Below, piece after piece: positions 13,631 through 48,090 of a stretch of 64,000 nt of DNA (position 1 is its first letter; each line of letters begins with the position of its first letter). The notes beneath the pieces are model-generated. The model saw nothing but the letters and a program-made list of their open reading frames with translations, had not been told where the DNA came from and ran no database searches. Source of the stretch: an uncultured Chloroflexia bacterium (GTDB lineage: Bacteria; Chloroflexota; Limnocylindria; Limnocylindrales; CSP1-4). Both the position numbers and the translations under genes were made by a program. The stretch covers positions 138,134-202,133 of the forward strand of contig CAVONF010000005.1 of assembly GCA_963697275.1 (NCBI GenBank). The letters are read 5' to 3'.

Positions 13631-14773
13631 TCAGGTGGACCTCGAGCGCCGCATGGCCAGCGATTCGAGGATGCCCAGCCCCAGGGCTGCGCTGATGAGC
13701 GAGGCGCCGCCGTGCGTCACGAACGGCAGCGGGATGCCGGTGATGGGCATGACGCCCAGGACCATGCCCACGTTGATGATCATCTGGAACAGCATCATCC
13801 CGGCCAGGCCGCCCGAGAGGGCCAGCGTGAAGTTGTCCTCGGAGCGCCAGCCCACCAGCAGGATGCGCCAGATGAGCAGGGCGAACAGGGTCAGCACCAC
13901 GACACCGCCAAGGAAGCCCAGCTCCTCGCCGACGCGGGCGAACACGAAGTCCGTCGAGCCCACTGGCAGGTCCTGGCCGGCCAGTCCATTGGTCAGCCCT
14001 CGGCCCAGGAAGCCACCCGAGCTGACCGTGATCTGCGACTGCTGCAACTGGTATCCAGCACCGAGCGGGTCGGCTGCCGGATCCAGAAAGGCGATCAGGC
14101 GCTGCTTCTGGTAGTCCTTAAGCAGCAGCGACCAGGCGACCGGCACCATCGCCAGCACCCCCAGCACCGAGACCGCCAGCCAGCGCAGGCTGGCGCCGGA
14201 CATGAAGAGCGCGCCCAGCACGATGGCGCCGAACACCAGCGACGTGCCCAGGTCAGGCTGGATGAGCACGAGTCCCAGCAGGGGCAGCGCGATGAGCCCG
14301 GCGCCGAGGATGGTGCCCACCCTGTTGATGGCCGCCTGGCGTGTGGCGAGGTAATGGGCCAACACCACCGCCAGCAGGATCTTGGCGACCTCGGAGAACT
14401 GGAACTGCAGGCCGAGGATGGAGACCCAGCGTGAGACACCACCAGTGCCGCTGCCGATGAGCAGCGTCAGCAGCAGCAGGCCGATGCTCAGGGCGTAGAT
14501 GGGCCACACGAACGTCCGCAGCCAGTGATGGTCGGCAGCAGCCGAGGCCACGAAGACCACGGCCGCCAGCGCCAGCCAGATGAGGCCACGCGTGAAGATG
14601 GAGCCGGGCTGCAGCGGGTCGGTGGCACTGTTGGTGAAGGCCATGAGCAGGCCCACCACCGTGAGCGACAGCGCGAAGATGGCCAGCTGCAGGTCGAAGC
14701 CGTACCAGCGGCCCTGCCCGTCCCGCGCCGCCAGCGTCCCCACCCGCGCCGGCTCGATGCGCAACGTGCTCAT
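13631..14773 (-). CDS. rodA: Peptidoglycan glycosyltransferase of the SEDS family (RodA/FtsW)
   Basis: An intact 380-aa SEDS protein (SRWVSILGLQFQFSEVAKILL, QPDLGTSLVF, GMPITGIPLPFVTHGGASL). It is directly downstream of the PBP2 gene. Confidence 0.85.
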   Translation of the reverse strand: MSTLRIEPARVGTLAARDGQGRWYGFDLQLAIFALSLTVVGLLMAFTNSATDPLQPGSIFTRGLIWLALAAVVFVASAAADHHWLRTFVWPIYALSIGLLLLTLLIGSGTGGVSRWVSILGLQFQFSEVAKILLAVVLAHYLATRQAAINRVGTILGAGLIALPLLGLVLIQPDLGTSLVFGAIVLGALFMSGASLRWLAVSVLGVLAMVPVAWSLLLKDYQKQRLIAFLDPAADPLGAGYQLQQSQITVSSGGFLGRGLTNGLAGQDLPVGSTDFVFARVGEELGFLGGVVVLTLFALLIWRILLVGWRSEDNFTLALSGGLAGMMLFQMIINVGMVLGVMPITGIPLPFVTHGGASLISAALGLGILESLAMRRSRST

Positions 14774-16716: not shown

Positions 16717-17220
16717 TCACCACGCCAGCCGCTCGCGTTCGCCGAAGCGCAGGTCGAGGGCACGTACGACCACGACCGCGATAGCAGCCAGCAGCAGGTT
16801 GAGCGCGCCGATCAGGATCAGCTCCGGCAGGGCCAGCCCGGCGAAGGCGACACCGGCCGTCACGCCCAGGATGGCCAACAGCAGCACCTGGTACACGAAG
16901 GTGAGGCTGAAGGTCGTGGCCGAGATGACGATGAGTCGCGGGGGCCACGTCGTGCGCGCCACGAGCAGTGCGAGCGCGGTCAGCAGCACGAGGGTCAGGG
17001 CTGACGAGCCAAGCGCCCTTCCAGGCAGCAGGAGGTCCAGCGCCACACCTCCGACGAACGCCCAGGCCATGCCACTGTCGAAGCCGAGCACCATGGCCAC
17101 AGCGATGCCCACGGCGAACACGAGGTCGGGCTTGACACTGCCCACCTGAAGGTGGGTCAGCACGCTCGACTCGACCACGGCGGCAAGGACGGCTCCCACG
17201 GCAGGAGCCAGGATGCTCAT
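16717..17220 (-). CDS. mreD: Rod shape-determining protein MreD
   Basis: A 167-aa very hydrophobic protein of about 5 TM segments, immediately upstream of mrdA (4-nt gap). The call rests on position and topology. No mreC or mreB lies upstream. Confidence 0.6.
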   Translation of the reverse strand: MSILAPAVGAVLAAVVESSVLTHLQVGSVKPDLVFAVGIAVAMVLGFDSGMAWAFVGGVALDLLLPGRALGSSALTLVLLTALALLVARTTWPPRLIVISATTFSLTFVYQVLLLAILGVTAGVAFAGLALPELILIGALNLLLAAIAVVVVRALDLRFGERERLAW

Positions 17221-17598
17221 CTGGTATGTCGATAGCTCTGGGGTCCACGGCTGGAGTGGCTGCGCCCGAGTCGCCCCTCGCGCCCCGAGCCACTGCAAGC
17301 AGTATAGCCGAGGGTCCTCCCCTTCCCTGGAGGCTGCCTGTGGTCGGGTGACCCTGTCAGTGACCCGGGGGCGGAACACTCGGGTGGGCCAGCTGGGTAC
17401 CGACGGCGCCTCCCCTCTCCTGCGCACGGCGCTGCGACATCGCACAGCGCCACGCTGTCGTGCGTATCATTCGCTACTCAGGCCATCGCCGAGCGGCGGA
17501 TGATCGAGTACGGTCTGTCGTCCCGAGTTGACCTGTGCGATTCCGGATGGAAGGCAGTTTGGCACGAACAAGTGGACAGACGAGAGGCAATTCCTCCG

Positions 17599-17614
17599 TG
17601 TTTCACGTGGAACC
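17599..17614. promoter_or_regulatory. parS-like site (14/16 match to TGTTTCACGTGAAACA)
   Basis: TGTTTCACGTGGAACC is read directly, in the non-coding region upstream of parA. Confidence 0.6.
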
Positions 17615-17983
17615 ATGTGTTGTGGCATCGCGACCACCCCGTCAGGCAGGCAAGCTGATCGCGTGAGGACCCGAGCCTCCCTGCCCAGAGCGAACGCGCG
17701 CGGGAGTCGAGCGGGGCTGCTGGGGACCAGACAGCCACTACCCCGTTGCCCGCCTGTTGTCGTCCAAGCGATACACGTAGGTTCCGCGTACGCGTGTTCC
17801 CCGAAAGACGCCGGCGACCGGCCTGGGGCGTACGCTCGCGAAGCGTGGTTCAGCGGTTCGAGCGAGTTGAGGGCTGACTGGTCGAGCATGGGCGTCGATG
17901 CACGTCGCCAAGTCCGCGGGGCCATGGGTGGGAGCGGCCAGTGATCCAGGTCTCGGCGCTCGATCAAGCCTCCATCTGCCGAC

Positions 17984-17999
17984 CGTTTCACGTGAAACA
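17984..17999. promoter_or_regulatory. parS centromere site (15/16 match to TGTTTCACGTGAAACA)
   Basis: CGTTTCACGTGAAACA is a near-perfect palindrome 340 bp upstream of parA. Confidence 0.8.
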
Positions 18000-18090
18000 T
18001 CCGGTCAGCTGCTCAAGCGCTCAGCTTCCTCTCGATCACGAGGGCCGCAGGGGCAGGCGAACTCCCCGGTCGCGAGCGAGGCGCAGCCGA

Positions 18091-18099
18091 TGTGGACAA
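18091..18099. promoter_or_regulatory. DnaA box (TGTGGACAA, the complement of the high-GC consensus TTGTCCACA)
   Basis: A perfect 9/9 match. Related 9-mers lie at 17241, 17571, 18202, 18244 and 18257. Confidence 0.5.
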
Positions 18100-18303
18100 G
18101 CAGCGGCAAAGGCAGAGGGAAGCGCACGGGAAGCTCGGCGTGCAAGCATCATCAAGCATCGTGTGCCCGAGCATCATGTCGTATAGAACGTGGTCACGCG
18201 CATGTCCACGGGATCGAGGCAGGCTCGGCGACACGGCGGGACGAGCGGACAAGAGCACGGGACAAGGGTGGTGCATCAACGCACCGGAACGATACACAGG
18301 GTA

Positions 18304-18312
18304 GTATCCACA
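18304..18312. promoter_or_regulatory. DnaA box-like 9-mer (GTATCCACA, 8/9 to TTATCCACA)
   Basis: Read directly, 30 nt upstream of the parA start. Confidence 0.45.
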
Positions 18313-18341
18313 CAGTGCATTGCGAAGGGTGTAGGGACTGA

Positions 18342-19186
18342 TTGGGCGAGATCATCGCCTGCGCGAACCAGAAGGGCGGCGTTGGCAAGACGACCACTGT
18401 AGTCAGCCTCGCCGCGTATCTCGCGCTTGACGGACGGAACGTGCTGGTGGTCGACGTAGACCCGCAGGGCAACGCGACCAGCGGACTCGGCATCGACAAG
18501 GACGCCCTTGGTCTGTCCATCTACGACGCTCTGCTTGCGGACGCGGAGCTCGCAGACATCATCCAGCCGACGTCGCTCGAGAATCTGTCCATCCTCCCCT
18601 CGGATCGCAGCCTCGCAGGAGCGGAGGTCGAGCTGGTGCCTACATCCGGACGGGAGCGCCGACTCAAGCAGGTCCTGAGCGCCTCGACGGACGCGTATGA
18701 CTACGTCTTACTGGATTGTCCGCCTTCGCTCGGCCTGCTCACGGTCAATGCCCTGACCGCTGCCCACAGCGTGCTCATCCCGCTCCAGTGCGAGTACTAC
18801 GCACTGGAAGGCCTGAGTCAACTGATGGCCACCATCGAGCTCGTGCGCGACCACCTCAATCCCGGCCTTGTCGCTGAAGGGGATCGTCCTCACCATGCAC
18901 GATGGACGCACCAGCCTGGCCGCAGACGTGACGGCAGAAGTGCGACGCCACCTGGGCGATCAGGTCTTCGACGCGGTCGTACCCAGGAGCGTCCGCCTCG
19001 CTGAGGCTCCCGGGCTATGGCCGGTCCATCGCCGAATACGGCCCCGCGTCGCGTGGCGCCGTTGCGTATCAGGCGATCACGTACGAGTTGCTCACCAGGA
19101 GCGGCCACCATCCGGGCGCGTCGCTCACCGCGGCCAAAGGGAGCTACCAGGCACCGCGGACGGACCGCGAAGCAGAGGAGGTCTGA
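18342..19186 (+). CDS. parA: Chromosome partitioning ATPase ParA/Soj (two frameshifts, near 18870 and 19015)
   Basis: It has a TTG start and the deviant Walker A NQKGGVGKTTT, followed by LLDCPPSLGLLT, SLKGIVLTMHDGRT and RLAEAPGYGRSIAEYGPASRGAVAY, spread over three frames. The stop at 19184-19186 is 2 nt before parB. Confidence 0.85.
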
Positions 19187-19188
19187 CC

Positions 19189-25633
<6,445 letters not shown>

Positions 25634-25634
25634 G

Positions 25635-26708
25635 GTGAGCATCTTCGGCGAGATCGAGCGGCTGCGGCCCGGGGAAGCGCTGGGCCTCTACTGCGGCAAC
25701 GCCAATCCGCTCCTGGCTGCCAGGATCGCCCGCTACCTGGGCATCGATCTGGGCTCGTCCGAGGTCTTCGAGTTCGCCAACGAGAACATCTTCGTGCGCA
25801 TCGTGGACAACGTGCGCGAGAAGGACGTCTTCCTCGTCCAGCCCACCTGCCGGCCGGTCCAGAAGTCGATCATGGAGCTGCTCATCATGATCGACGCCTT
25901 CAAGCGGGCCAGCGCGGGTCGCATCACGGCGGTGGTGCCGTACTACTCGTACGGACGCTCGGACAAGAAGGACCAGCCTCGTGTACCCATCACGGCCCGG
26001 CTCATCGCCGACATGATCAGCGTGGCCGGAGCGGACCGGCTGCTGACCATGGACCTCCACCAGGGCCAGATCCAGGGCTTCTTCAACATCCCCGTCGACG
26101 AGCTCACCGCGGTGCACCTGCTCTCCAACTACTGGCGCCAGAAGGAGCTGGAGAACACCGTGGTGGTCACCGACCTGGGTTACGCCAAGCGTGCCCGCAC
26201 GTTCGCCGAGCTGGTCGGGGCGCCGCTGGCCATCATCGAGAAGCGGCGTGAAGCCAACGACGATCGGGCCCAGGTGCTCAACGTCATCGGTGACGTGCGC
26301 GGCAAGCGCGCCATCATCGTCGACGACGAGGTCGACACCGGCGGCACGCTGGTGGAGACGGTGCACGCGCTGGAGCGCGAAGGCGTCATCGAGATGTACG
26401 GTTGCGCCACGCACGGCGTGCTCTCCGACCCGGCCATCGACCGCATCCGCGACTCCAGCCTGCGCGAGGTGGTCATCACCGACACCATCCCGCTGCCGCC
26501 CTCGCACCGGCTCAGCAACATCAAGGTGCTCTCCGTGGCCCCGCTCATCGGTGAGGCCATCAACCGCATCCACCGGGGCGAGTCGGTCGGCGCGCTATTC
26601 TCTTCGGAGATCCAGCGCACCCAGGCGATGCTGCTGTGGGGCGACAGCGATGAGGAGCCCGCGCTTGTCGACGCGGTCGTGGCCTCGGCCGCGACGTCCG
26701 ATCGCTAG
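25635..26708 (+). CDS. prs: Ribose-phosphate pyrophosphokinase
   Basis: An intact 357-aa ORF with VVPYYSYGRSDKK, DLHQGQIQGFF and the PRPP loop IVDDEVDTGGT. Confidence 0.9.
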   Translation: MSIFGEIERLRPGEALGLYCGNANPLLAARIARYLGIDLGSSEVFEFANENIFVRIVDNVREKDVFLVQPTCRPVQKSIMELLIMIDAFKRASAGRITAVVPYYSYGRSDKKDQPRVPITARLIADMISVAGADRLLTMDLHQGQIQGFFNIPVDELTAVHLLSNYWRQKELENTVVVTDLGYAKRARTFAELVGAPLAIIEKRREANDDRAQVLNVIGDVRGKRAIIVDDEVDTGGTLVETVHALEREGVIEMYGCATHGVLSDPAIDRIRDSSLREVVITDTIPLPPSHRLSNIKVLSVAPLIGEAINRIHRGESVGALFSSEIQRTQAMLLWGDSDEEPALVDAVVASAATSDR

Positions 26709-36885: not shown

Positions 36886-36917
36886 CCGTCCAGTCCAGAC
36901 CCTGAGGATGTCGAATC

Positions 36918-37379
36918 ATGGGCAAGACCGTCGCCCAGAACCGCAAAGCCCGCCACGACTACACCATCGAGGAGACGCTCGAGGCCGGCATCGCCCTGAC
37001 CGGGACCGAGATCAAGTCGGTCCGCGAGGGCCATGTCAACCTGCAGGACGCCTACGCGCGCATCGAGCGTGGCGAGGCCTGGCTCGTCGGCGCGCACGTC
37101 GCGCCGTGGTCCGGTGGCAACCGCTACAACCACGAGCCGATGCGTGACCGCAAGCTGCTGCTGCACCGGACCCAGATCGACCAGCTGGCCGGCAAGACCA
37201 GGGCCAAGGGCCTCACGCTGGTGCCGCTGGCCATGTACTTCAACGATCGCGGCCGGGCCAAGGTGCAACTGGGGCTCGCGCGCGGCAAGAAGAACTACGA
37301 CCGCCGTCGGGACATCGCCGCGCGAGATGCGCGCCGCGACATGGACCGCGACATGGCCGACGCTCTCCGCGGACGCTGA
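36918..37379 (+). CDS. smpB: SsrA-binding protein SmpB
   Basis: An intact 153-aa [28 protein letters not shown]...KLLLHRTQI...LVPLAMYF. tmRNA lies 70 nt downstream. Confidence 0.95.
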
Positions 37380-37449: not shown

Positions 37450-37823
37450 GGGGATGCGTGGTCTCGACAGGGCCCCACACCCGAAGAACGCGAGCCGAGG
37501 TGCCGTCAGGCCTCGCTAAACAGGCGGCAAACCTAGAAGTAACTGGCAACCGCCAGCCTGCTCTCGCCCTCGCGGCCTAAGGCCGTAAGGTGAGCGTGGA
37601 AGCAGCCTCCTCCTCGCGGGCTGTGGAAGCGTCATCCAGCGAGGATGCGCTCCGGGTCAGCGTCGCGTAGCCCGGAGCCAAGCCCGCAAGGGAACGTGAC
37701 TGGATCCTGGGCCACGGTGCCGATGCCGGGACACAGGATCGACGACAAAGCATCGGACACGCTCGTAGTGGGCTTCGGACGCAGGTTCTGGACGGGGAGT
37801 TCGACTCTCCCCCATCTCCACCA
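37450..37823 (+). ncRNA. ssrA: tmRNA (SsrA)
   Basis: The 5' GGGGAUG pairs with CAUCUCC-ACCA at the 3' end, including the G3:U wobble. There is a T-arm GGAGTTCGACTCTCC. The internal tag ORF ends ...CAG CCT GCT CTC GCC CTC GCG GCC TAA (..QPALALAA). It sits next to smpB. Confidence 0.9.
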
Positions 37824-40842: not shown

Positions 40843-40980
40843 TCAGACGGTGAGCTTCTTGCGGCCACGCGCGCGCCGCGCGGCCAGCACCCTGCGGCCG
40901 CCCCGGGACTTCATGCGGGCGCGGAACCCGTGTTCCTTGGCGCGGTGGCGCTTCTTGGGTTGGAATGTCTGCTTGGTCAC
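40843..40980 (-). CDS. rpmH: 50S ribosomal protein L34
   Basis: [47 protein letters not shown], 45 aa. It is too short to appear in the ORF track. Confidence 0.9.
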
Positions 40981-41526
40981 TGGGGCTGGGCTCCTCTGGG
41001 CAAGCGGTCGGGCGTGTGACGGGGACCGGCTCGCCCCTGCGGATGAGAACGTCGCATGCCGGGCCGGGCTGGCCAGTGCTGGCCGACCCGGGAGCCGCGC
41101 ATCGCGCTCGGCGGATTATACGCGACAGGCACCCGTGACCGGAGGAGGGCCGGTCGTCGCGGTTGCCGGTGCCCTCTCACCCGCTGTCGGCGGCGCCCGG
41201 GATCACCGCACGAAACCCGGTTCGCGCGGCCACAGGGGCTCAGGCGGCAGTGGGGTGCAGCTGTCGTCAGCAGGGCTGGGGCCCCGGACAGGATACTCCC
41301 CTGGAGTATGTCGAGTCAGCATTGCAGGGATGCGAAACGCGGTGCTAACGTATGCCGCCCCGGTGCCATTCGGAACGCCCGGGGTGCCCAAGGCTGGAGG
41401 CTCCGCAGCGACGACCCGAGGGGGGTCAGCCCGGTCCTCCGAGGGAGGTCGAGCGCGCCACTCGAGTGCTGGGACACCACTCGCTGGGTGCGGAAGCTGT
41501 GTGAAGTACGGGTCACGTTGCCATCG

Positions 41527-42903
41527 ATGGACGCGAAACAGGTCTGGCGAGCCGCGCTCGGTGAGCTCCAGGTGTCGCTGTCCCCGGCCAACTACGAGAC
41601 GTGGCTCAAGGACACGCTGCTCATCGACGTCGACGGAGACCGCTTCTGCGTCGCGGCCCCCAATGGCTTCGCCAAGGACTGGCTGGAGAACCGCTATCGC
41701 TCGCTGATAGCCCAGACCCTCGCTCGCATCGTCGGCTACAGCGTCAATGTCGAGTTCACGGTGCGAGAGCTCGAGGAAATGGGGGCGGCCACAGCTGCTC
41801 CGATCGAGGCGGCCCGTCTGGGCAACCCGAGGGTGCGCGTGGAACCGGGGCGCGTCGGTGCGACCGAGGGCGGCGGCGTCAACCTCAACTCGCGCTACAC
41901 GTTCCGTACCTTCATCGTCGGCTCCGCCAACCGTCTGGCCCATGCGGCCAGCCTCTCGGTCGCCGAGCGCCCCGGGGAAGCCTACAACCCGCTCTTCCTC
42001 TACGGCGGCGTGGGCCTCGGCAAGACACACCTCATGCACGCCATCGGCAACGCTGTCGTGGCTCGCTTCCAGCGCAAGCGTGTCGTCTACGCCACCAGCG
42101 AGAAGTTCACCAACGACTTCATCACCAGCATCCAGCAGGGTCGCATCGACGACTTCCGGGCCCGCTACCGCAAGATCGACCTCCTGCTCATCGATGACAT
42201 CCAGTTCATCGCTGACAAGGAGCGCACCCAGGAAGAGTTCTTCCACACCTTCAACGCCATCCACGAGGACGGCAAGCAGATCGTCCTCTCCAGCGACCGG
42301 CCGCCCAAGCAGATCACCACGCTCGAGGAGCGCCTGCGCAGCCGCTTCGAGTGGGGCCTCATCGCCGACCTGACGGCGCCGGACCTGGAGACCCGCATCG
42401 CCATCCTGCGCACCAAGGCAGAGGAGCAGGGCGTGCGCGTGGACGCCGAGGCCCTCGAGTTCATCGCCCGCAAGGTGGTCTCCAACATCCGCGAGCTGGA
42501 GGGCGCCCTCAACCGCATCGTCGCCTACGCCAGCATGCAGGGCATGCCCATCAGCGTCGACCTGGCCCAGGCCGTGCTCTCCAACGTGCTCTACAGCCCG
42601 CGCAAGCGGGCGGTCACCCCAGAGCGCATCGCTGCCGCCGTGTCCGCGTACTACGACGTGGAGCTCGAGGCGCTACGTGGCCAGAAGCGTGACCGCGCCA
42701 TCGTGGTGCCCCGCCAGATCGCCATGTACCTGATGCGCGAGGAGACCGACGTTTCGCTGCTGCGGATCGGTGCCGAACTGGGTGGGCGCGATCACTCCAC
42801 GGTGCTGCATGCCTGTCGCAAGATCGACCAGGAGGCTGCGCGCAACGAGGAGTTGCGTCGCGAGCTGGCTGCGGTCCGCGAGGCCATCTACTCCGAGCCC
42901 TGA
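41527..42903 (+). CDS. dnaA: Chromosomal replication initiator DnaA
   Basis: MDAKQVWRAALGELQVSLSPANYETWL, the Walker A motif GGVGLGKTHLMHAIGN, the sensor blocks, and the domain IV signature RIGAELGGRDHSTVLHA. It is intact. The ORF is open from 41056, but conservation starts at 41527. Confidence 0.95.
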   Translation: MDAKQVWRAALGELQVSLSPANYETWLKDTLLIDVDGDRFCVAAPNGFAKDWLENRYRSLIAQTLARIVGYSVNVEFTVRELEEMGAATAAPIEAARLGNPRVRVEPGRVGATEGGGVNLNSRYTFRTFIVGSANRLAHAASLSVAERPGEAYNPLFLYGGVGLGKTHLMHAIGNAVVARFQRKRVVYATSEKFTNDFITSIQQGRIDDFRARYRKIDLLLIDDIQFIADKERTQEEFFHTFNAIHEDGKQIVLSSDRPPKQITTLEERLRSRFEWGLIADLTAPDLETRIAILRTKAEEQGVRVDAEALEFIARKVVSNIRELEGALNRIVAYASMQGMPISVDLAQAVLSNVLYSPRKRAVTPERIAAAVSAYYDVELEALRGQKRDRAIVVPRQIAMYLMREETDVSLLRIGAELGGRDHSTVLHACRKIDQEAARNEELRRELAAVREAIYSEP

Positions 42904-43244
42904 GCCGCCTCCCGGTCGACCTCTCGTGGTGAGCTGGCCGGACCTGCCCGCGTGTGGAGAGCGAGTGGACGAACCGCGGTGCCCTGCGCGGCCCAGGGAC
43001 GTGAGCTGGTGGGCCGGCCGGTGAACGGACGGGACGGTCGGTGGACGCCCGCCCCGTCCGTTCACGATCAGCGTCGCTTTGTCCACCGCCTGCTCACGCT
43101 GTGTCCGCGCCCTGCCAGCCCACACTCCGGTCGCGCCCACAGCGTGAGCAGGGGCGACCATCCACAGCATCAACACCATGAAGATGATGATGAGATGAGA
43201 AGATTACAGTCACTCAAGAACATCCCGAAGGAGGCCCGCCGCTC
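42904..43244. other. dnaA-dnaN spacer with DnaA-box-like 9-mers, a 13-bp inverted repeat and an AT-rich tract: candidate oriC
   Basis: The 9-mers are TGTGGAGAG 42953, AGTGGACGA 42964, GGTGGACGC 43040, TTGTCCACC 43079 (8/9) and CCATCCACA 43158. The inverted repeat is gtgaacggacggg/cccgtccgttcac at 43021-43065. The AT-rich run at 43167-43225 contains gaagatgatgatgagatgagaagat. Confidence 0.55.
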
Positions 43245-44366
43245 GTGAAGCTGTCCCTGATGCAGGAGAACCTGGCCCGGGGCCTGTCCCTCGTCAGTCG
43301 AGCCGTCAGTAGTCGAGCCACGCTGCCGGTGCTCTCCAACGTGCTGATCAAGACCCAGGACGGGGGCTTGCGGCTAACCGGCACCAATCTCGAGATCGGC
43401 ATCACGGCCTGGGTGCCCGGGAAGATCGAGGCTGATGGTGCTGTGACCGTGCCCGCCAGGCTCATCACCGATGTCGTCTCCGGCCTGCCCTCGGGCGAGC
43501 GCGTCGATCTCGAGATGGAGAAGGACAACACGCTGCTCATCCGGGCCGGCTCGTACCGCACGCATCTGCGTGGCATCGAGGCCGAGGAGTTTCCCGTCAT
43601 CCCCGGCGCCGGCGACCGACCGACCACGCAAGTCAGTCAGAAGGCACTGCGGCGAGCGCTGGCTGAGGTGACCTTCGCAGCGGCCGCTGACGAGGCACGC
43701 CCCATCCTGACCGGTGTGCTGACACGCCTCTCGGGGGAGACGCTCACCCTAGCCGCCGCCGACAACTACCGCATCGCGGTCAAGACACTCGACCTGCTGC
43801 AGTCGGTCGAGGAGATCAGCGTGGTCATCCCGGCTCGTTCCTACGTCGAGCTCATGCGCATCCTCGGAGACACCGATGAGCCGGCTGACATCATCCTTGC
43901 CCAGGCCAAGAGCCAGGTCATCTTCAGGGTCGATACCACGGAGGTCGTGAGCCGCCTCATCGATGGCCAGTTCCCCAACTACCAGTCGGTGCTGCCCACC
44001 TCCCACAGCACGCGTGCGCTGGTCGATCGCGACGAGCTGCTCAAGGCCGTGCGGCTGTCGGCGCTCATCGCCTCTTCGGCCGCCAACGTCGTGCGCCTCG
44101 GGTTCGGCGAGGAAGACCACCCGGCCTCCATCAGCGTCGCCGCGGCTGCCGACATCGGGGATGCCGAGGGCCAGGTCGAGGTGCAGCTCGAGGGCGATCC
44201 GGTGACCATCGCCTTCAACGCCCGCTACATGGTCGAGGCGCTGCAGAACATGGAGGCCGAGCAGCTCGCCATCGAGCTCAGTGGACCACTGGCTCCGGGG
44301 GTGCTCAAGCCGGTGGACGACCCCGCCTATGTCCATGTCATCATGCCGGTGCGAACGCCATCCTGA
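43245..44366 (+). CDS. dnaN: DNA polymerase III beta sliding clamp
   Basis: An intact 373-aa ORF with a GTG start after GAAGGAGG. It contains LPVLSNVLIKT, RLIDGQFPNYQSVLP and a C-terminal MPVR. Confidence 0.95.
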   Translation: MKLSLMQENLARGLSLVSRAVSSRATLPVLSNVLIKTQDGGLRLTGTNLEIGITAWVPGKIEADGAVTVPARLITDVVSGLPSGERVDLEMEKDNTLLIRAGSYRTHLRGIEAEEFPVIPGAGDRPTTQVSQKALRRALAEVTFAAAADEARPILTGVLTRLSGETLTLAAADNYRIAVKTLDLLQSVEEISVVIPARSYVELMRILGDTDEPADIILAQAKSQVIFRVDTTEVVSRLIDGQFPNYQSVLPTSHSTRALVDRDELLKAVRLSALIASSAANVVRLGFGEEDHPASISVAAAADIGDAEGQVEVQLEGDPVTIAFNARYMVEALQNMEAEQLAIELSGPLAPGVLKPVDDPAYVHVIMPVRTPS

Positions 44367-45966: not shown

Positions 45967-48090
45967 ATGGTCACCCGACTCGAGATCACGCACGGCCTGA
46001 TCGCCGAGCGGGACCGGTTATCGACGTCTGGCGACACGGTCAGCGTCACCCGTCCCACGACCGGCTCGAAGACGCGCACCAAGGGCGTGCTCTTCATCGT
46101 CGCCACGTCGGTCATCTCGGGCCCCCGCGGCCGGGAGGCCACCGCGCTCGTCGCCGAGACCATCCGACACGAGTACTACTACGACGAATCGGCTGGCGTA
46201 CCGATCTGCCTCGAGAAGGCCGTCAGGAGCGCCGACCGGCGTCTGCGCGCCAGCCGTGAGGGCGCCGGGCTCCCAGCCGGGTCCATCGGCGTCGCCGTCG
46301 CCGTCATCCGCACCAACGAGGTCTATCTCGCCACCGTCGGTTCCGCGGAGGCGTATCTCGTCCGCTCCGCGCGGCTGCTCATCCCTGATCGGAGCACGCC
46401 CGGCGGCCTGCCCTCGGACGACGGCCGGCCCATCGACGTCTGGCGCGGCGAGCTCAGCGTCGGTGACGCGGTCCTCCTGGTGGCCCGCAACATGACCGAG
46501 ACCGTCGGCACCGAGGAGCTCAAGAGCGCAGCGCTGACGCTCCATCCCCAGGCCGCGGCGGAGCACCTCCACCACCTCTTCGTCGCGGCTGGCGGCGAGG
46601 GCCCGGATGGCCTCATCGTCGTCGAGGCCAGCGAGCAGACCACCCGGATGCCGCGACGCGCTGCGGCCACCGGGGTGGCGGATGCCTACGGGGATTCGCC
46701 CGGCCCCGTGCCCCCGCCCGGAGCGGCGCTCGTCGGTGCTCGTGGCCCGCTGGGCTGGTCGCTCAACGGCCTGGCTGACCAGATCTGGGAGGTCATGCCT
46801 CGCCGACAGGCCCGCGCGCAGCGGGTGAGCTCGCGGACGTCCCGTGCCGAGACACAGCGCCGGGCGGCGATGGGCGCGATGGCCCTGGTGGTGGTCGTGT
46901 TCCTGCTGGGACTCTTCGTCGTCCTCGCGCCACGCGGAGGCGATGCCACGCGGGTGCCCCAGGTGGCGAGCGGCGATTCTGCGCTCGCGGCGGCGCTCGA
47001 CCGCACTGACCGTGCCGACAATCTCGTCGCGACCGAGCCCGACGCCGCGCTCGACTTCTATCGGGAGGCCTGGGCGGAGGTCGTCCGCGCCCGCAACACC
47101 GGCCTCTCGGCGCCCGCGCTCGATGACCTGGAGCGCCGCGTCCGCAGCGGGCTCGATCGGCTCTACCTGGCGCGCACGCCGGTCACGGAGCGCATCACCA
47201 GCCTGCCTCGCCAGGCCGACCCGCTGGGCCTGGTCGAAGGCCCCCGAGGTGGGGCCTACTACATCGATCGCGCCGACTCCACCGTCAGCCGCGTCAACAC
47301 CAGCAATGGCAAGAGCGCCACGATCGTCCACGAGGGTGACACTCCCGCCGCTGGCGGCTCTTCGAGGATCGGTGTCCCCGTCCAGCTCGAGGCAGGCGGC
47401 CCCGACGTCGTGATCGTCGATGACCAGGCGCGTCCCTGGCGCTGGCGGCCCTCGAACTCGGCCGGGTCGGGCACGCTCAACCGGCTCACCCTCCAGGGCA
47501 GCCCCACGTTCGGTGAGGACCATGGCGACGTGGCCGCCTACTCGCCCTCTACGGGCGGCTACCGGCTCTACGTGGCCGAGCCCTCGCGCAACCAGATCAT
47601 GCGCTATCAGCAGACACTCGACGGCAGTGCCTTCTCGCCACCATCGACCTACCTGGCCACACCCAGCTCCGAGGTCGCCGACTTCACCCAGATCTACGTC
47701 GACTTCGACGTCTACGCGCTGCTCGACAACACGCTGCGGCGCTACCGTCTCGAGAAGTATGACGGCGGCTTCGCACTCGACGAGCCACCCGATGGTGAGG
47801 ATGTGCGGCCCGGGCACGACTATCGACTGGTGGCTGGCAGCGGCAGCGCCTCGAGTGGCGGCCGTGTCTACCTCTACGATGCGCTCCACGCCCGGGTGGT
47901 CGGCTTCGAGAAGGCTGAGGGAACCTACCTCGGCCAGTGGGCGCCGGCGCCTGACGAGCCGCAGATGGACGACGTGCGGGGCATGTACGTGATCCCCGGC
48001 AAGACCGCCAAGAAGAAGCGCAACCCTGACACCCTGGTGTGGATCACCCCGGAGGGCATCTTCTCATCGGTCCTGGCTACGTCCGAATGA
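45967..48090 (+). CDS. Membrane protein: N-terminal degenerate PP2C-like domain, one TM, large extracytoplasmic repeat (beta-propeller-like) domain
   Basis: An intact 707-aa ORF. PP2C-like blocks are present (GVLFIVATSV..., IGVAVAVIRTNEVYLATVGSAEAYLV, GDAVLLVARNMTE), but the DGHGG, SDG and DN metal-ligand motifs are missing. The TM segment is AMGAMALVVVVFLLGLFVVLAP. The C-terminal 380 aa are rich in strand-like repeats. Confidence 0.5.
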   Translation: MVTRLEITHGLIAERDRLSTSGDTVSVTRPTTGSKTRTKGVLFIVATSVISGPRGREATALVAETIRHEYYYDESAGVPICLEKAVRSADRRLRASREGAGLPAGSIGVAVAVIRTNEVYLATVGSAEAYLVRSARLLIPDRSTPGGLPSDDGRPIDVWRGELSVGDAVLLVARNMTETVGTEELKSAALTLHPQAAAEHLHHLFVAAGGEGPDGLIVVEASEQTTRMPRRAAATGVADAYGDSPGPVPPPGAALVGARGPLGWSLNGLADQIWEVMPRRQARAQRVSSRTSRAETQRRAAMGAMALVVVVFLLGLFVVLAPRGGDATRVPQVASGDSALAAALDRTDRADNLVATEPDAALDFYREAWAEVVRARNTGLSAPALDDLERRVRSGLDRLYLARTPVTERITSLPRQADPLGLVEGPRGGAYYIDRADSTVSRVNTSNGKSATIVHEGDTPAAGGSSRIGVPVQLEAGGPDVVIVDDQARPWRWRPSNSAGSGTLNRLTLQGSPTFGEDHGDVAAYSPSTGGYRLYVAEPSRNQIMRYQQTLDGSAFSPPSTYLATPSSEVADFTQIYVDFDVYALLDNTLRRYRLEKYDGGFALDEPPDGEDVRPGHDYRLVAGSGSASSGGRVYLYDALHARVVGFEKAEGTYLGQWAPAPDEPQMDDVRGMYVIPGKTAKKKRNPDTLVWITPEGIFSSVLATSE

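Follow-up and report, generated by a model that had tools for sequence, protein, structure and literature searches.

A probable chromosomal centromere with a conserved DnaA box between the divergent mreD and parA operons of an uncultured Limnocylindria-type Chloroflexota

Introduction

Is a non-coding gap between two divergent operons a replication origin, a centromere, or both? The question is raised by positions 17221–18341 (the gap) of a 64,000-nucleotide stretch of the 551-kb contig CAVONF010000005.1 (the window), which comes from an uncultured Chloroflexota bacterium. A first-pass annotation of the window read the gap as a candidate origin and centromere lying apart from dnaA. Our analysis of the window and its relatives gives a divided answer. 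The gap is probably a chromosomal centromere set in the divergent control region of the mreD-PBP2-rodA and parA-parB-gyrase operons, with the real origin about 25 kb to the right.

Read as a parS centromere lying within a divergent control region, the gap is an ordinary kind of element in a little-known phylum. Two extras are of modest interest, namely a conserved DnaA box module that heads the parAB-gyrase operon and an unlisted, structured mreD leader. The analysis places a centromere and a probable origin for an abundant, uncultured lineage of soil and freshwater Chloroflexota, which is useful for orienting metagenome-assembled genomes, for the baselines of peak-to-trough replication rates, and for annotation. 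It also carries a caution: a strand switch, a perfect DnaA box and parS are together insufficient for calling an origin.

Two parS sites upstream of parA and parB

The gap and the features that bear on the centromere are as follows. Gene assignments throughout the window are based on Pfam and NCBIfam profile matches.

16717–17220, minus strand: mreD (Pfam/NCBIfam)
17221–18341: gap of 1121 bp between mreD (leftward) and parA (rightward)
17599–17614: parS1, TGTTTCACGTGGAACC, with two mismatches to TGTTTCACGTGAAACA and one to the degenerate consensus TGTTNCACGTGNAACA
17984–17999: parS2, CGTTTCACGTGAAACA, with one mismatch, 343 bp upstream of the parA start
18342–19185 (end approximate), plus strand: parA, a Soj-type Walker ATPase (Pfam AAA_31/CbiA/ParA; three-frame reading)
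19190–20060 (approximate), plus strand: parB, with ParB_N and HTH_ParB domains and GERRLRAA in the N-terminal domain (Pfam; three-frame reading)

Two parS sites had been reported in the gap, and both are confirmed at their coordinates. The 16-bp palindromic consensus TGTTNCACGTGAAACA is matched with one mismatch at 17984 and with two at 17599. These are the sole matches with three or fewer mismatches in the 64 kb, where 0.02 are expected, and none of 100 shuffled sequences yielded two. Directly downstream of the sites are genes for a Walker-type ParA and the cognate ParB (ParB_N plus HTH). The motifs KGGVGKT and GERRLRAA can be read in the ParA and ParB translations, and the family TIGR00180 (parB_part) was also matched.

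The locus was compared with that of 15 distinct relatives, all Limnocylindria-type Chloroflexota whose MreD is 58–90% identical to that of the window. A genome scan based on MreD returned 12 loci; a locus search based on ParA was swamped by other phyla. All 15 relatives share the order mreD, a gap of 0.63–1.1 kb, and parA-parB-gyrB-gyrA-prs-secA. Their gaps contain two parS sites in 13 cases and one in the remaining two. The counterpart of parS1 is found in 13 of the 15, and that of parS2 in all of them, 150–410 bp upstream of parA. In 13 relatives, 275 kb of sequence surrounding dnaN contained no parS. The centromere half of the first-pass reading is well supported by this pair of sites, which lies upstream of parA-parB and is kept among relatives.

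The gap resembles known chromosomal ParABS centromeres in that its palindromes fit the universal consensus, lie upstream of the ParA and ParB genes and are conserved in relatives, here at about 25 kb from the predicted origin. It differs from them in three respects. First, there are just two sites, and none elsewhere in the 64 kb of the window, nor within the 20 kb surrounding dnaN. Second, parAB is not found in its usual rsmG-parA-parB place after jag. Third, parAB is inverted relative to rpmH-rnpA-yidC-jag and heads an operon with gyrB and gyrA.

By family resemblance, clamps of ParB bound to cytidine triphosphate would be loaded at parS1 and parS2 and from there slide along the DNA on either side, forming a partition complex. 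ParA would move this complex, which probably recruits SMC. Since ParB would bind so close to the parA promoter, its binding probably has a feedback effect on parAB expression as well.

A sequence between parS1 and parS2, GGTTCCGCGTACGCGT at 17779–17794, resembles a degenerate parS half-site and may be a decayed third parS.

A non-coding strand switch

The gap had been described as non-coding, less GC-rich than its surroundings and located at a strand switch, and each of these points holds. Codon-position GC periodicity is absent from the gap and present in both flanks. The GC content is 65% in the gap, compared with about 69% in the window. The open reading frames (ORFs) of 1–17.4 kb that are supported by third-codon-position GC all lie on the minus strand, and parA through prs (18342–26708) lie on the plus strand.

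A broken or hidden gene in the gap is ruled out by the lack of codon periodicity and of any Pfam match and by the little conservation between motifs. Three long ORFs inside the gap match no Pfam family, and a 232-residue ORF called in the gaps of two relatives (L085 and L086) is without family and not conserved. A known RNA is likewise ruled out, as a search of the gap against Rfam returned no family at E ≤ 1 except one chance microRNA match.

Homologs of the MreD, ParA and DnaN of the window belong to metagenome-assembled genomes labeled Chloroflexota or 'Candidatus Limnocylindrales'. The organism is a Limnocylindria-type Chloroflexota, and a remark of the first-pass annotation on actinobacterial-type gene order does not apply.

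C-rich motifs of the CCTCCCCT type (GGGGAGG on the minus strand) are located at 17314–17329 and 17406–17423 and recur in most relatives' gaps, within otherwise unconserved spacer. In the window, no start codon lies downstream of them at the distance of a ribosome-binding site.

A conserved DnaA box between parS2 and the parA promoter

The right part of the gap contains three positions for DnaA boxes and a candidate parA promoter:

18091–18099, minus strand: perfect DnaA box, TTGTCCACA on the minus strand and TGTGGACAA on the parA-sense strand
18102–18110, minus strand: second tandem box position, 2 bp after the first, decayed to AGCGGCAAA in the window
18257–18265, minus strand: promoter-proximal box position, ACGGGACAA in the window, with three mismatches and decayed
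18269–18285, plus strand: inverted repeat TGGTGCATCAACGCACC (GGTGC-N6-GCACC), about 20 nucleotides upstream of the −10-like hexamer
18302–18307, plus strand: −10-like hexamer TAGTAT of the candidate parA promoter, with TAnnAT kept at this position in relatives

The perfect DnaA box TGTGGACAA noted at 18091 is genuine and is the sole perfect TTGTCCACA in the window. It is situated 91 bp to the right of parS2 and 211 bp upstream of the −10-like hexamer of parA. With one mismatch or fewer, and in the same orientation, the box is present in 11 of the 15 relatives. Its flanks diverge and cannot be aligned, and when the gaps are anchored on parS2, the box is found 13–174 bp to the right in these 11 of 15. 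The exact high-GC DnaA consensus occurs in seven distinct relatives and the window. A consensus DnaA box is hence located upstream of a candidate promoter and outside the predicted oriC. In more distant Chloroflexota, parA is preceded by a parS, but not by a DnaA box.

The box is not always alone. In L082, L171 and L172, the second tandem position reads TGCGGATAA, with one mismatch. The promoter-proximal position contains a good box with one mismatch, abutting GTGGTGC, in three relatives: AGTGGATAA in L082, CGTGGACAA in L173 and GGTGGACAA in L174. Outside the mreD leader, boxes with one mismatch or fewer are co-oriented by 20 to 3.

The other DnaA-like 9-mers fare less well. All nine motifs listed by the first-pass annotation are present where it placed them. 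Its about seven DnaA-like 9-mers amount to a modest enrichment: seven sites with two or fewer mismatches are found where 2.4 are expected (Poisson P = 0.012), a density about threefold over background. About 3% of equal-sized sliding windows reach seven, including coding DNA at 20–21 kb with nine. Three of the listed 9-mers carry three mismatches. Six of the seven 9-mers are not conserved as DnaA boxes in relatives, an outcome that the annotation itself had named as speaking against the origin reading; AGTGGACAG, ATGTCCACG and AGCGGACAA are among those not conserved. The 9-mer at 18304, GTATCCACA, has one mismatch and overlaps the −10-like hexamer of parA, and its CCACA part varies among relatives.

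The parA hexamer takes the forms TACTAT, TACAAT, TAACAT, TAGAAT and TAAAAT in relatives. The inverted repeat recurs with variations in most of them and is least clear in L083, L084, L088, L179 and L180. It is a candidate for an operator or for a −35 element belonging to the parA promoter. Transcription of both operons probably runs outward from either end of the gap, starting at conserved −10-like hexamers.

The dnaA-dnaN spacer as the likely origin

A strand switch that contains a perfect, conserved DnaA box, together with a modest enrichment of DnaA-like 9-mers (P about 0.01), could be taken as the mark of an origin. Origins also occur away from dnaA. In Escherichia coli, oriC adjoins gidA, away from dnaA. 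The origin-like oriCII of Pseudomonas, a plasmid clone of which replicates, is a further precedent (PMC13438810). A considerably stronger candidate for the origin of this genome is the spacer between dnaA and dnaN:

about 41528 (start of coding periodicity) to 42903 (end): dnaA
43158–43206, plus strand: likely oriC unwinding module, composed of CCATCCACA, GC, ATCAACA, CC, ATG AAG ATG ATG ATG AGATGAGAAGATTA
43245–44366: dnaN, followed by recF

The module consists of tandem DnaA boxes that abut a 3-periodic GAT/ATG array at the dnaN end of the spacer. The spacer (42906–43244) contains four boxes with two or fewer mismatches in 339 bp, compared with 0.74 expected (P = 0.007). It also holds the lowest-GC stretches of 40, 60 and 100 bp in the whole 64 kb. 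In close relatives, ATGAAGATGATGATGAGATGAGAAGATTA is nearly invariant, and five further box positions in the spacer are conserved, making six in total. The arrangement '..TCCACA-CC-ATGATGATG...ATGAGAAGATA' is found again before dnaN in most of the 78 related genomes examined, down to 64% DnaN identity.

DnaA trios are expected on the strand on which the box reads TGTGGATAA, following the layout of R1 and the 13-mers in E. coli. NAN trios were sought on the strand of TTATCCACA and on the opposite strand, and both outcomes are given. On the minus strand, the spacer reads (CAT)n-GG-TGTGGAC. The spacer of the window contains three contiguous trios, which are 17 bp from a box with two mismatches and 8 bp from a second box with three mismatches. 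An isolated first trio is located 2 bp after the second box and is followed by one non-conforming triplet. The opposite strand of the spacer contains nine trios in register, compared with at most five in shuffled sequences.

The basal unwinding system has been defined as a box with two or fewer mismatches, a spacer no longer than 16 bp and three or more NAN trios (PMC8287927). When this strict test was applied upstream of dnaN, 43 of 78 relatives passed, as opposed to 1 of 79 control segments. The spacer shares with basal unwinding origins (PMC8287927, PMC10721633) the tandem co-oriented boxes, the short GC spacer, a 3-periodic array whose middle adenine is on the expected strand, and an AT-rich flank immediately before dnaN, an arrangement also seen in Bacillus subtilis. 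All of these features are absent from the gap.

In the gap of the window, no array of three or more trios is found near any box in either orientation. The gaps of relatives show only isolated hits of the minimum length of three trios, in five relatives and at chance level. Where oriC would have a conserved cluster of several boxes, the gap contains one perfect box and one with a single mismatch over the −10 of parA. The AT-rich patch that the first-pass annotation saw at 18140–18200 has a GC content of 52% over 60 bp and is poorly conserved in relatives; the lowest value in the window is 38% over 60 bp, at 43164–43223. The minimum GC over 40 bp is 47% in the gap (45–50% including six relatives), compared with 35% in the dnaA-dnaN spacer (33–40%). 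The origin half of the first-pass reading is not supported, as the gap offers one conserved box but neither a DnaA-trio array nor an AT-rich unwinding element.

Given the boxes, the trio array, the lowest GC content and the conservation in the dnaA-dnaN spacer, oriC is most likely located there, about 25 kb from the gap. Replication would start where the tandem boxes abut the DnaA-trio-like array, in the only markedly AT-rich DNA of the region. On six contigs that carry both the gap and dnaN, the two are spaced about 25–27 kb apart, as calculated from contig coordinates. Long related contigs with both loci include CAVZWI010000001.1 (1.75 Mb), where dnaN is at about 602.8 kb and mreD/parA at about 576.8 kb, CAWBQS010000003.1 (2.19 Mb) and CAVRTH010000019.1 (1.14 Mb).

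An unusually long non-coding stretch of about 550 bp (40980–41527) extends from rpmH to the start of the coding periodicity of dnaA. It contains just two DnaA-like 9-mers with two or fewer mismatches. The 615-residue dnaA ORF probably extends too far at its 5′ end.

Possible roles of DnaA at the gap

Two known systems connect DnaA with chromosome segregation. In Pseudomonas aeruginosa, DnaA boxes upstream of gidAB-parAB raise the expression of the operon, and the Pseudomonas oriCII element is origin-like, replicates when cloned on a plasmid and is dispensable for replication of the chromosome (PMC13438810). In both oriCII and the gap, DnaA boxes are located upstream of the promoter of a ParA/ParB operon, near but apart from the real origin. 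Both appear origin-like to a reader of the sequence, and both are conserved within their family. The two differ in that oriCII has at least five boxes, whereas the gap has one to three, with no AT-rich element and no gidAB. Moreover, parS sites share the gap with the boxes.

The second system is the centromere of Caulobacter crescentus, where experiments demonstrated both DnaA binding and a segregation phenotype (Mera et al. 2014, as cited in PMC11151105). The Caulobacter centromere resembles the gap in having a DnaA site beside parS, a few kilobases to tens of kilobases from the origin, and differs in that the gap presents a conserved motif, 56–174 bp from parS2.

By analogy with these systems, the most likely role of the co-oriented boxes is that they let DnaA regulate the parA-parB-gyrB-gyrA operon. 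Alternatively, DnaA could act on the behavior of the centromere, as in Caulobacter. DnaA bound upstream of the parA promoter would serve as a transcription factor or an architectural factor, and its binding would tie the expression of segregation and gyrase genes, or the behavior of the centromere, to the state of initiation. A DnaA site beside parS suggests, on the same analogy, a coupling of initiation and segregation.

A bolder form of this idea holds that the boxes between parS2 and the parA promoter are a dedicated coupling device through which DnaA controls parAB and gyrBA at the centromere, or, in a weaker version, that they are a latent, origin-like element of the oriCII type. We consider it a tentative possibility. 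Were it true, initiation, centromere loading and supercoiling capacity would be set together. The conserved DnaA box next to parS, in front of a parAB-gyrBA operon, adds a third example of a DnaA-segregation link, phylogenetically remote from Caulobacter and Pseudomonas, and is a modest, testable lead.

It is unlikely that the gap is a parS-bearing divergent promoter region and nothing else, with TGTGGACAA serving a different regulator as its operator or acting as a −35-like TTGACA. The motif does contain TGGACA, L082 has a perfect TTGACA, and both the relatives without the box and the distant Chloroflexota described above agree with such a reading. Against this, none of the relatives has a −10 hexamer (TAnnnT) 16–18 bp after the motif, which rules out TGTGGACAA as a −35 element. 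The 9-mer is the exact high-GC DnaA consensus in seven relatives and the window, is often followed after 2 bp by the second box-like TGCGGATAA and, in three relatives, is joined by a third at the promoter, all of these in one orientation.

The boxes are rather improbable as a DnaA-titrating cluster that damps initiation beside the centromere, in the manner of the B. subtilis clusters or E. coli datA. Known titration loci contain far more boxes than the one to three per genome seen here. In addition, one box position abuts the parA promoter, and transcriptional control therefore fits better than titration. The distance of 25 kb from the predicted oriC and the tandem, co-oriented arrangement are what would favor titration, for which B. 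subtilis provides a precedent: its DnaA-box clusters near the origin but outside oriC hold initiation back and show genetic interactions with Spo0J/Soj (PMC3245932).

It is very improbable that the gap serves as the origin of replication, or as a second, origin-like site able to fire, with DnaA opening the patch at 18140–18200, in view of its single conserved box, its lack of a trio array, its higher GC content and the deeply conserved boxes, trios and AT-rich DNA of the dnaA-dnaN spacer.

Several observations weigh against a centromere and divergent control region in the gap with a regulatory DnaA box and an origin at the dnaA-dnaN spacer. The distal DnaA box is missing in four of the 15 relatives (L176, L177, L179 and L180), and because these relatives manage without it, the box is not indispensable. 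A stringent sigma-70 promoter scan and a terminator scan of the gap returned nothing, with no full promoter, and for this reason the promoter assignments are drawn solely from the conserved −10-like hexamers. The spacer site of the window passes the unwinding test only with a spacer of 17 bp, not ≤16 bp, because its array is interrupted by one trio and it has an extra degenerate box. The trios of the spacer read 3′-TAC-5′ (5′-GAT-3′ on the other strand), not 3′-GAT-5′. Bulk GC skew and third-codon-position GC skew support neither origin position, and could not decide between them because skew in the 64 kb tracks the coding strand; the per-gene third-position skew under the two origin hypotheses gives Mann-Whitney P values of 0.18 and 0.52. 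Finally, the assembly contains homopolymer indel errors, described below, and single-base details of motifs could therefore be wrong.

The mreD leader

The left end of the gap is occupied by the leader of the mreD operon:

17221–17310, minus strand: conserved mreD-PBP2-rodA leader/promoter block, near-invariant in alignments
17244–17296, minus strand: covarying RNA hairpin in the mreD leader, with an invariant loop GGGGCGA and an invariant 3′ tail AGCCGUGGA

The sequence UAUCGAC is found just before the ATG of mreD. The leader further contains an invariant GGCTATACT, with the −10-like TATACT being AGTATA on the plus strand at 17303–17308. GGCTATACT may be either the −10 hexamer or part of a leader RNA. 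The DnaA-like 9-mer at 17241, GGGTCCACG, is the reverse complement of the invariant CGUGGACCC in the tail of this block.

The outer helix of the hairpin changes by clade yet stays complementary (GUGGCU/AGCCAC, GUGACG/CGUCAC and GCGGCA/UGCCGC). A covariance model detected this hairpin in front of mreD at 14 of the 16 relative loci searched. In the alignment, which was itself fitted to the covariance model, pairing holds in 90% of cells, and compensatory changes are seen in 10 of the 14 pairs; none of 500 shuffles equaled this, and slid controls gave 31–45%. The hairpin is assigned to the mreD-sense strand on account of its G-U pairs. It has no match in Rfam. The hairpin is an unlisted candidate cis-regulatory RNA for the cell-wall elongation genes mreD-PBP2-rodA.

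Assembly quality and gene order

The parA gene of the window contains two one-base insertions in homopolymer runs, at 18861 and 19012, relative to L081. A frameshift is present in parB near 19850 and another in gyrA at about 24000–24500. In relatives, the genes are intact, with lengths of 280 residues for ParA, 288–294 for ParB and 855 for GyrA. Since the parA indels are extra homopolymer bases and the genes are intact in relatives, the frameshifts are most likely long-read assembly errors. The alternative that parA, parB and gyrA are pseudogenes was judged unlikely, as both parA indels examined are single homopolymer bases and the short-read relatives are intact. Exact-protein look-ups with the Prs and RodA of the window gave no match, probably owing to differences in start codon or frameshifts.

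The remaining genes around the gap and dnaA are the following:

13631–14773, minus strand: rodA (Pfam/NCBIfam)
between rodA and mreD, minus strand: PBP2 (Pfam/NCBIfam)
after parB, to 26708, plus strand: gyrB (TIGR01059, above cut-off), a DNA-alkylation-repair-like gene, gyrA and prs
right of prs, minus strand: secA (Pfam/NCBIfam)
between the transfer-messenger RNA (tmRNA) gene and dnaA, minus strand: jag-yidC-yidD-rnpA-rpmH

The true gyrB and gyrA, both NCBIfam equivalogs, share a gene string with parA and parB and are not located after recF. The DNA-alkylation-repair-like gene separates gyrB from gyrA. The ORF that follows recF (45967–48090, 707 residues) was considered as gyrB and ruled out, as it matches no Pfam or NCBIfam family.

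The tmRNA gene is located at 37450–37823, between a small ORF (36906–37379) and jag, and encodes the tag GNRQPALALAA. It falls inside the 25 kb that divide the centromere from dnaA.

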